Virus record (IMG/VR): IMGVR_UViG_2534682139_000014
Span: 1 to 10,498 of that record
Length of the DNA: 10,498 nt
DNA from: a virus
Taxonomy: Duplodnaviria > Heunggongvirae > Uroviricota > Caudoviricetes
Strand: one strand, 5' to 3'
Shown here in pieces: positions 7,193-7,440 of this stretch (position 1 is its first letter; the number at the start of each line of letters is the position of its first letter). A model generated the notes under the pieces. The model did not search any database and was not told the origin of the DNA. It worked only from the letters and a program-made list of their open reading frames with translations. The position numbers and the translations under genes are program-made.

Positions 7193-7234
7193 TCTGTCCC
7201 CCTCTCCTGTCTGATGTCTGAATCTGTTTATGCC

Positions 7235-7267
7235 CCAAAAACGACAGGCACCCCGGAGGGTGCCTGT
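7235..7267 (-). terminator. Strong hairpin plus U-tract (terminator-like) on the minus strand, ~40 nt upstream of the J start
   Basis: Perfect 10-bp stem ACAGGCACCC/GGGTGCCTGT (7244-7253 / 7258-7267) with a 4-nt loop; minus-strand transcript would continue CGUUUUUGGGG. Confidence 0.5.
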
Positions 7268-7401
7268 GTCATGACGGAATAAAATTTCTGAATTTCTTCA
7301 CATTTTCTGTACGCCCCCGTGGCAGATATCATTCCCGGGCGTTACAGTTTTTTCGGGCCAATAAAAACAAAACTCCCTGTGGTTAATCTTCATTTTCTGT
7401 T

Positions 7402-7436
7402 CCCGCAGCCTCCATACACTGCGGGATTTTTTTATT
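7402..7436 (+). terminator. Rho-independent terminator on the plus strand (antisense to the tail operon), abutting the I stop codon
   Basis: CCCGCAG (7402-7408) - 10-nt loop - CTGCGGG (7419-7425) followed by ATTTTTTTATTCTTTTT. Confidence 0.6.
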
Positions 7437-7440
7437 CTTT

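Follow-up and report, generated by a model that had tools for sequence, protein, structure and literature searches.

A probable PasB-family small RNA gene in the I-J tail-gene spacer of a lambdoid prophage from Shiga-toxin-type Escherichia coli

The DNA analysed here (the window) is a stretch of 10,498 nucleotides, positions 1 to 10,498 of the viral record IMGVR_UViG_2534682139_000014, and it comes from a lambdoid prophage of Shiga-toxin-type Escherichia coli, of which it covers the tail end; its tail genes are encoded by the minus strand. Over its full length it was 99.6% identical to a stretch of E. coli 2015C-3163 (NZ_CP027219), in which the minus-strand genes follow the order tape measure, M, L, K, I (annotated as tail assembly protein), gpJ, Lom and tail fibre, with an EspF-repeat effector gene on the plus strand after the tail fibre. 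Through the open reading frames (ORFs) of the window, we found a spacer of 248 bp between I, whose stop codon occupies 7441-7443, and J, which begins with GTG at 7192, compared with a gap of 60 bp in phage lambda (I end 15444, J start 15505). A first-pass annotation made from the letters alone had pointed out this long gap against about 60 bp in lambda, and had described a spacer with no credible ORF and with two oppositely oriented hairpins. The measured lengths agree with it, the ORF check of 7193-7440 revealed no credible ORF, and both hairpins are real, the minus-strand one being called by a terminator scan and the plus-strand one being found by folding. No feature is annotated between the tail assembly protein and gpJ in NZ_CP027219. 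On the plus strand, antisense to the tail operon, the spacer very probably contains a gene for a small RNA (sRNA) of the PasB family, and the coordinates of its parts are given in Table 1.

PasB (pathogenicity-associated sRNA B; Pearl Mizrahi et al. 2021) was described in enteropathogenic E. coli (EPEC) O127:H6 E2348/69 as an 83-nt RNA on the minus strand of NC_011601 (1466343->1466261; Table S6, PMC8550237), located in prophage PP6 between E2348C_1436 and E2348C_1437 with the directionality '(> <) >' (PMC8550237). These two genes correspond to I (end 1466255) and J (start 1466496). PasB was validated by northern blot, changed in the hfq mutant by log2 -6.8 (activating) and -2.4 (non-activating), showed 37 RIL-seq interactions, and reached base means of 482-1082 reads against about 2-27 for the flanking tail genes (PMC8550237); it is a real, independently expressed sRNA. 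The spacers of E2348/69 and of the window aligned end to end with a mean column identity of 85%, and the reported ends of PasB fell on the two ends of the window element (Table 1). Both RNAs are found in the I-J spacer of a lambdoid prophage in antisense orientation, with the 3' end a few nucleotides from the I stop codon, and they share the terminator stem with U7, the UUAAUCUUCAU/ACUCC core, the position of the -10 element and an upstream box, the whole spacer being collinear. They differ in the 5' third and in the terminator loop, and E2348/69 carries a near-consensus TTCACA-16-TATAAT just upstream, which the window lacks.

Homologous plus-strand Hfq-CRAC peaks, EcOnc22, EcOnc23 and EcOnc24, were listed in Sp15, Sp14 and Sp11 of enterohaemorrhagic E. 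coli (EHEC) O157:H7 Sakai (Tree et al. 2014, PMC4104026, Table S2). EcOnc22, whose host element Sp15 is the Shiga toxin 1 (Stx1) prophage, gave a northern band of about 85 nt and was destabilised without hfq (PMC4104026). We found all three within the I-J spacers of Sakai. The coordinates in that table are offset by +137 to +146 bp from NC_002695.2, as calibrated on AgvB1, which is listed at 1941783-1941835 but detected with its Rfam model in NC_002695.2 at 1941920-1941981 (L006 621-682). The offset-corrected EcOnc22 peak covers the PasB-like region of Sp15. Placing the raw coordinates of EcOnc22-24 on NC_002695.2 moves the peaks to the J-proximal hairpin, and this placement was rejected as an artefact of the version offset of about +140 bp seen with AgvB1. 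The Sakai spacers are collinear with that of the window, J-leader hairpin included, but the 5' part of the RNA is shorter than in the window. From the alignment and the coordinate correction, EcOnc22-24 appear to belong with PasB, and a literature search found no paper equating them; the analysis thereby joins two literatures, that of EcOnc22-24 in EHEC and that of PasB in EPEC. The element is already known in kind, its homologues having been published in 2014 (EcOnc22-24) and 2021 (PasB).

To describe the family, 242 homologous cassettes comprising 80 distinct sequences were collected from viral contigs, anchored on a conserved 25-mer and then on the J N-terminus, and a covariance model was built from 18 variants with the window's own variant group left out. 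This model matched the window element over its full length (model positions 1-79) with 68.6 bits and an E value of 1.1e-13, the runner-up match in the window having an E value of 0.75. The window RNA was identical to PasB at 63 of 84 aligned positions and to the Sakai Sp15 copy at 62 of 83 (about 75% each), and PasB and the Sakai form are as distant from each other as each is from the window RNA. Common to all variants are an A-rich 5' part (7360-7372 in the window), ACUCC, UUAAUCUUC(A/G)U and the terminator. The core that follows the A-rich part includes the most conserved internal columns of the 80 distinct variants and is unpaired in the fold; it is probably the base-pairing (seed) region. 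The seed of PasB was placed just upstream of the terminator (Zhu et al. 2026, bioRxiv 10.64898/2026.05.13.724894).

Folding revealed the terminator of the sRNA as an 8-pair stem followed by U7, ending 7 nt from the I stop codon. It was not called by the terminator scan because its loop of 10 nt exceeds the limit of 8 nt set there. The hairpin had been noticed beside I from the start as a terminator at 7402-7436; it does mark the 3' end of the sRNA, with the end at 7436 lying 3 nt beyond the U tract (7433). The stem CCCGCAG/CUGCGGG pairs in 95.6% of cells among 45 distinct homologues, and a few divergent cassettes have a different, longer terminator stem which is out of register in the model alignment. 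The fold as a whole consists of an open body and then the terminator with U7, as is typical of an Hfq sRNA, the rho-independent terminator with its long U tract being the module for the proximal face of Hfq. With the site in the I-J spacer of a lambdoid prophage, the orientation antisense to the tail operon, the 3' end beside the I stop and the homology in sequence and structure to validated members, we regard the element with high confidence as a PasB-family sRNA gene on the plus strand. The extra DNA had been read at first as a candidate small-RNA insert, which the PasB/EcOnc homology and the covariance model bear out, and it was the comparison of I-J junctions across lambdoid prophages, proposed at that time, that settled its identity as an sRNA cassette.

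Other sRNA families were compared with the window. At the gathering threshold, Rfam gave zero matches in the whole window, and in a permissive search the best was anti-hemB with 18.5 bits against 49.5 needed, covering the terminator part only; the same search recovered AgvB and STnc100 in Sakai loci used as controls. The element is a member of no curated Rfam family, AgvB, AsxR, STnc100 and Esr41 included, and PasB is not among the Rfam 15 families. AgvB and AsxR (RF02702, RF02703) resemble it as short Hfq-binding cargo sRNAs of prophages with a conserved 3' part, a variable 5' part and a moron site. They differ in that this site is downstream of PR', their sequence is unrelated, and they sponge core sRNAs, a role not ascribed to PasB. 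Their models had no match in the window (AgvB reaches 96.5 bits at its own loci), and both were rejected, as were PasA, PasC and PasD, which are located by the Q/lysis region.

The promoter of the sRNA probably lies inside the spacer, as judged from the alignments, with TACAGT as its -10 element. A TAnnnT hexamer followed by a T-run is kept in every variant class (TACAGT, TACTTT, TAGTGT, TAATGT, TACCGT, TACAAT and TAGATT), 6-8 nt upstream of the position aligned to the reported 5' end of PasB. The upstream hexamer TATCAT, whose counterpart in E2348/69 is TATAAT with TTCACA 16 nt upstream, was ranked second because it is not kept in all variants (GTGCAT and AACCTT occur instead). A sigma-54 reading of TGGCA at 7320-7324 was rejected, no -12 element being seen by eye. 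The first-pass annotation had supposed that an antisense transcript would need a promoter in or downstream of J, which is not the case for an RNA of about 80 nt started within the spacer; its best -10-like hexamer, TAAAAT at 7280-7285, lies in the A/T-rich flank of a CRP-like box instead.

This box is the sole match in the window to TGTGA-N6-TCACA with at most one mismatch, with which it agrees at 9 of the 10 positions of the core, and it shows a perfect right flank (TCACATTT). Its centre is at -60.5/-61.5 from the inferred start, and 168 of 178 cassettes have this centre 48.5 nt ahead of the first -10 base. The 38 nt between box and -10 element exist in 35 sequence versions, 30 of them of equal length, and in four diverged tandem cassettes both half-sites and the spacing are kept while N6 varies. 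The CRP site of lac P1, a class I promoter, is centred at -61.5, and a weak -35 element is usual for activator-dependent promoters. As circumstantial evidence for CRP, PasB was higher in overnight LB than in exponential DMEM, and Spot 42 (Spf), which is repressed by cyclic AMP (cAMP)-CRP, was about 5-fold higher in DMEM; this behaviour of Spf suggests a low CRP activity in DMEM. From the 9/10 core, the fixed distance and the weak -35 element, a class I promoter activated by cAMP-CRP is predicted with about even confidence. It departs from such a promoter in its left half-site, which is always TCTGA and never the consensus TGTGA, and both the start site and the role of CRP are predicted from sequence. 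A class II arrangement with the upstream -10 element was rejected, as the box would then be centred at about -44, a poor fit to -41.5.

Several points weigh against this account of the gene and its promoter. The window variant shares no more than about 75% of its aligned positions with each of the two validated homologues, from which its expression is predicted. Its 5' end, which may fall at 7354-7356, was carried over from RNA-seq coverage in another strain, and the upstream -10 hexamer would give an RNA of about 95 nt. The terminator stem is almost without covariation, which is uninformative either way because the stem hardly varies. The consensus scan called no sigma-70 promoter in 6900-7800, the TACAGT promoter having 8 of 12 matches and escaping the scan because of its weak -35 element. 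As to the CRP-like box, chance alone would give 0.4 matches per window and at least one in a third of the 10.5-kb shuffles; the box could bind another factor, or reflect recent common descent only. The DMEM and LB conditions differ in growth phase too. The calibration point of the offset used for EcOnc22-24 lies at 1.94 Mb, and a looser check at 3.49 Mb gave a compatible result.

We propose that an antisense 'moron' cassette (about 7279-7436, plus strand) was inserted between the I stop and the J leader and encodes an Hfq-dependent sRNA of about 80 nt. In the lysogen, host RNA polymerase would start at about 7354-7356 from the weak sigma-70 promoter and stop at the hairpin-U7 terminator, and the CRP-like box would probably tie expression to the carbon status of the cell. 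If this activation is true, host carbon status would be linked to post-transcriptional control by the prophage in Shiga-toxin-producing strains. The RNA, being largely single-stranded, most likely acts in trans by pairing with host and prophage mRNAs on Hfq. Its 5' part differs between family members, and the copies therefore probably have partly different targets.

An action mainly in cis, in which the sRNA pairs perfectly with the late tail mRNA in the lytic phase, or transcription of the sRNA runs into that of the operon, and J is lowered or uncoupled (for example through RNase III cleavage), we consider unlikely. The sRNA is indeed complementary over its full 80 nt to the I-J stretch of the late operon transcript, and its position beside the I stop is kept in all relatives. 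However, it overlaps no coding sequence or ribosome-binding site, that of J being about 145 nt off, past a strong hairpin. There are 37 Hfq-mediated contacts of PasB with other RNAs, 30 of which are apparently in coding sequences or 5' untranslated regions (UTRs; Table S5, column order as read), and no E2348C_1436/E2348C_1437 chimeras were among the Table S3 entries listed. The diverged tandem arrays and the copies behind sodC, described below, also fit a trans-acting cargo better.

The second hairpin, on the minus strand, belongs to the leader of J. It has 10 pairs, 7 of them G-C, and a tail reported by the scan as CGTTTTTGGG and given also as CGUUUUUGGG; this G+C-rich stem-loop directly followed by a U-rich tract has the form of an intrinsic terminator, and termination is predicted from it. 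Terminator-like sites in 6900-7800 numbered 2 against 1.3 +/- 1.2 in shuffles, so that their number in itself does not exceed chance. Folding of 7310->7236 gave a z of -3.7, and the hairpin is nearly invariant in the relatives' spacers that carry it. The scan confirmed its first-pass placement at 7244-7267 with U5; it is upstream of the J ribosome-binding site as stated then, at a distance of about 28 nt rather than about 40 nt, and 44 nt separate U5 (7241->7237) from the start codon. Lambda is without an sRNA here but carries in 15445-15504 (L207) a strong hairpin unrelated in sequence, AAACCGCC-UGCG-GGCGGUUU (CCGCC-UGCG-GGCGG; -21 kcal/mol, z = -2.8), and then a U-rich stretch (UUUUG) about 25 nt before J. 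In relatives with spacers of about 340 bp, the sRNA cassette is kept from the box onward and the J-proximal part is replaced by one with its own hairpin; this comparison shows that the two hairpins of the window belong to separable modules and are not two ends of one element. The minus-strand hairpin may be a terminator or stabiliser of the J leader that is read through by Q-modified polymerase; it would probably block transcription without Q antitermination from J-lom-stf and the downstream effector genes, or protect an mRNA end.

The same hairpin could also end a second sRNA on the minus (sense) strand, with its origin in the 3' UTR of I or at a promoter divergent from that of the plus-strand sRNA, which we consider very unlikely. 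The hairpin makes a good intrinsic terminator, the z given above for 7310->7236 is in keeping with such an RNA, and about 40 nt upstream of it on the minus strand are highly conserved. This conserved block is explained by the CRP-like box and the flanks of the plus-strand promoter, however, and in the spacers of about 340 bp it stays with the sRNA cassette and not with the hairpin; no sigma-70-like promoter was called on the minus strand, and Tree et al. list only plus-strand peaks in the Sakai I-J spacers (PMC4104026). An sRNA insert on either strand had been suggested at first: the plus strand is upheld by the homology to PasB, and the sense strand found no support.

That the spacer has no functional RNA gene and is just a long J leader, with two hairpins that attenuate or terminate transcription and so govern read-through into J, is very improbable: the highly conserved U5 hairpin in the leader, the hairpin before J in lambda and the lack of a called promoter would agree with it, but on the sense strand the I-proximal hairpin has an A-run on its 5' side and no U-run after it and is not a sense terminator, homologous cassettes yield discrete Hfq-bound antisense RNAs of about 83-85 nt in two pathotypes with the tail genes silent, and the cassette, complete with upstream box and terminator, is met with as a movable unit. 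Apart from the J-leader hairpin, nothing was found to favour the first-pass alternative of a regulatory element controlling J.

Table 1. Positions of the sRNA cassette, the J leader and related features (window coordinates unless a contig is named)
Feature	Position	Strand	Details and basis
Tail gene I	7441..8121	-	ORF
PasB/EcOnc22-family sRNA gene (very probable), about 80 nt	7354..7433	+	Covariance-model match, identity, alignment of PasB ends to 7354 and 7433
Rho-independent terminator of the sRNA	7401..7433	+	Stem 7401-7408/7419-7426, 10-nt loop, U7 7427-7433; fold
Conserved single-stranded core ACUCC...UUAAUCUUCAU, probable seed	7373..7394	+	Conservation, unpaired in fold
Probable -10 element TACAGT	7343..7348	+	Conservation across variant classes
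Alternative upstream -10-like TATCAT	7327..7332	+	Alignments; second start possible, RNA of about 95 nt
Weak -35-like GTGGCA	7319-7324	+	18-nt spacer to -10
CRP-like box TCTGA-ATTTCT-TCACA	7287..7302	+	Centre 7294.5; A/T-rich flanks 7279-7306
Terminator-like hairpin of the J leader	7237..7267	-	Stem 7267-7258/7253-7244, loop 4, then CG-U5
J leader	7193..7236	-	Ribosome-binding site GGAGAGGGGG, 7208->7199
Tail gene J	5012..7192	-	ORF
Contigs with tandem PasB-like arrays	L058 9515-10269; L032 322-1074; L053 12174-12926; L057 10116-10870; L026, L052, L009, L034, L041

We compared 77 loci whose J N-terminus was 96-100% identical to that of the window, measuring the spacer from the upstream ORF of at least 150 aa; lengths taken from the nearest ORF of at least 60 aa were discarded, as they gave false short classes (35-139 bp) from spurious ORFs. 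The spacers ranged from about 180 bp to about 1220 bp. About 50 of the 77 loci had a spacer of about 230-260 bp with one PasB-type cassette, and seven had one of about 340 bp. Another 15 had a spacer of about 850 bp with a gene for Cu,Zn superoxide dismutase (sodC) antisense to the tail genes. In these sodC loci (L130, about 851 bp; L136, L138, L140 and others) the gene encodes a lipoprotein-type signal peptide and has its own terminator, and a PasB-like sRNA without the CRP-like box follows. Other contigs contained two to four tandem, diverged PasB-like cassettes with a period of about 225 bp, each with its own CRP-like box, -10 element and terminator (Table 1). A published survey gave 28 kb as the minimum distance between pasB copies (Zhu et al. 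2026, bioRxiv 10.64898/2026.05.13.724894), and the tandem arrays seem not to have been described before. The I-J junction is a cargo site, which holds one to four tandem sRNA cassettes or an antisense sodC.

Of 5426 complete E. coli genomes, 471 contain the window's variant, unannotated, at a median of 3 copies and a maximum of 8; this sRNA gene is missed in the RefSeq annotation. Matches to the spacer came from 147 phage records, most of them Stx1a-, Stx2a- and Stx2c-converting phages and BP-4795. In the set of species-representative genomes, only Escherichia albertii and two tiny contigs had the motif. The survey of Pas sRNAs in 2026 used blastn with word size 28 (Zhu, Shabalina and Storz, bioRxiv 10.64898/2026.05.13.724894), and the longest exact run common to the window variant and PasB is about 19 nt; therefore the survey would miss the window variant, and it would likewise not detect the Sakai variant. 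The PasB family is wider than a BLAST survey with this word size can show.

Taking these data together, we tentatively suggest a family of mobile I-J cassettes of about 225 bp in Stx-type lambdoid phages, each combining a weak promoter and its CRP-type box at -61.5 with an Hfq sRNA of about 80 nt and a terminator. Such cassettes might have diversified in the 5' pairing region and been amplified to one to four tandem copies per phage and, for the window variant, to the copy numbers per genome given above. EHEC and EPEC might in this way possess paralogous sRNAs under the control of carbon status with different target sets, and the window copy would be one such paralogue, as yet unstudied and overlooked in the published survey of PasB.

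Two of the loci with spacers of about 340 bp (L149 and L192) have a J-proximal hairpin CCCCGGTATC...GATACCGGGG followed by TTTTCTTTC on the antisense strand, and this module may be another small antisense transcription unit. The two tiny contigs with exact PasB-type motifs are assigned to Parendozoicomonas haliclonae (L208, 460 bp) and Streptomyces flavalbus (L210, 3.4 kb) and are most likely contamination by E. coli or phage DNA.

Just upstream of its ribosome-binding site, the J leader contains a 7-nt repeat at 7209-7222, TCAGACA on the sense strand and TGTCTGA on the plus strand, in two copies in the window and two to four among relatives. J itself is broken up into one ORF of 726 aa (the one listed in Table 1) and another of 424 aa (3717..4991, minus strand) by a 1-bp deletion at about 5023 compared with NZ_CP027219, whose gpJ is a single gene of 3477 bp; either J in this prophage is a pseudogene or the window carries a sequencing error. 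Beyond the tail fibre genes, and in agreement with the annotation of NZ_CP027219, the window contains a partial EspV pseudogene (1-183) and, at 499-1251 on the plus strand, the EspF-repeat (TccP/EspFu-like) effector gene with 141-bp tandem repeats at about 754-1230.

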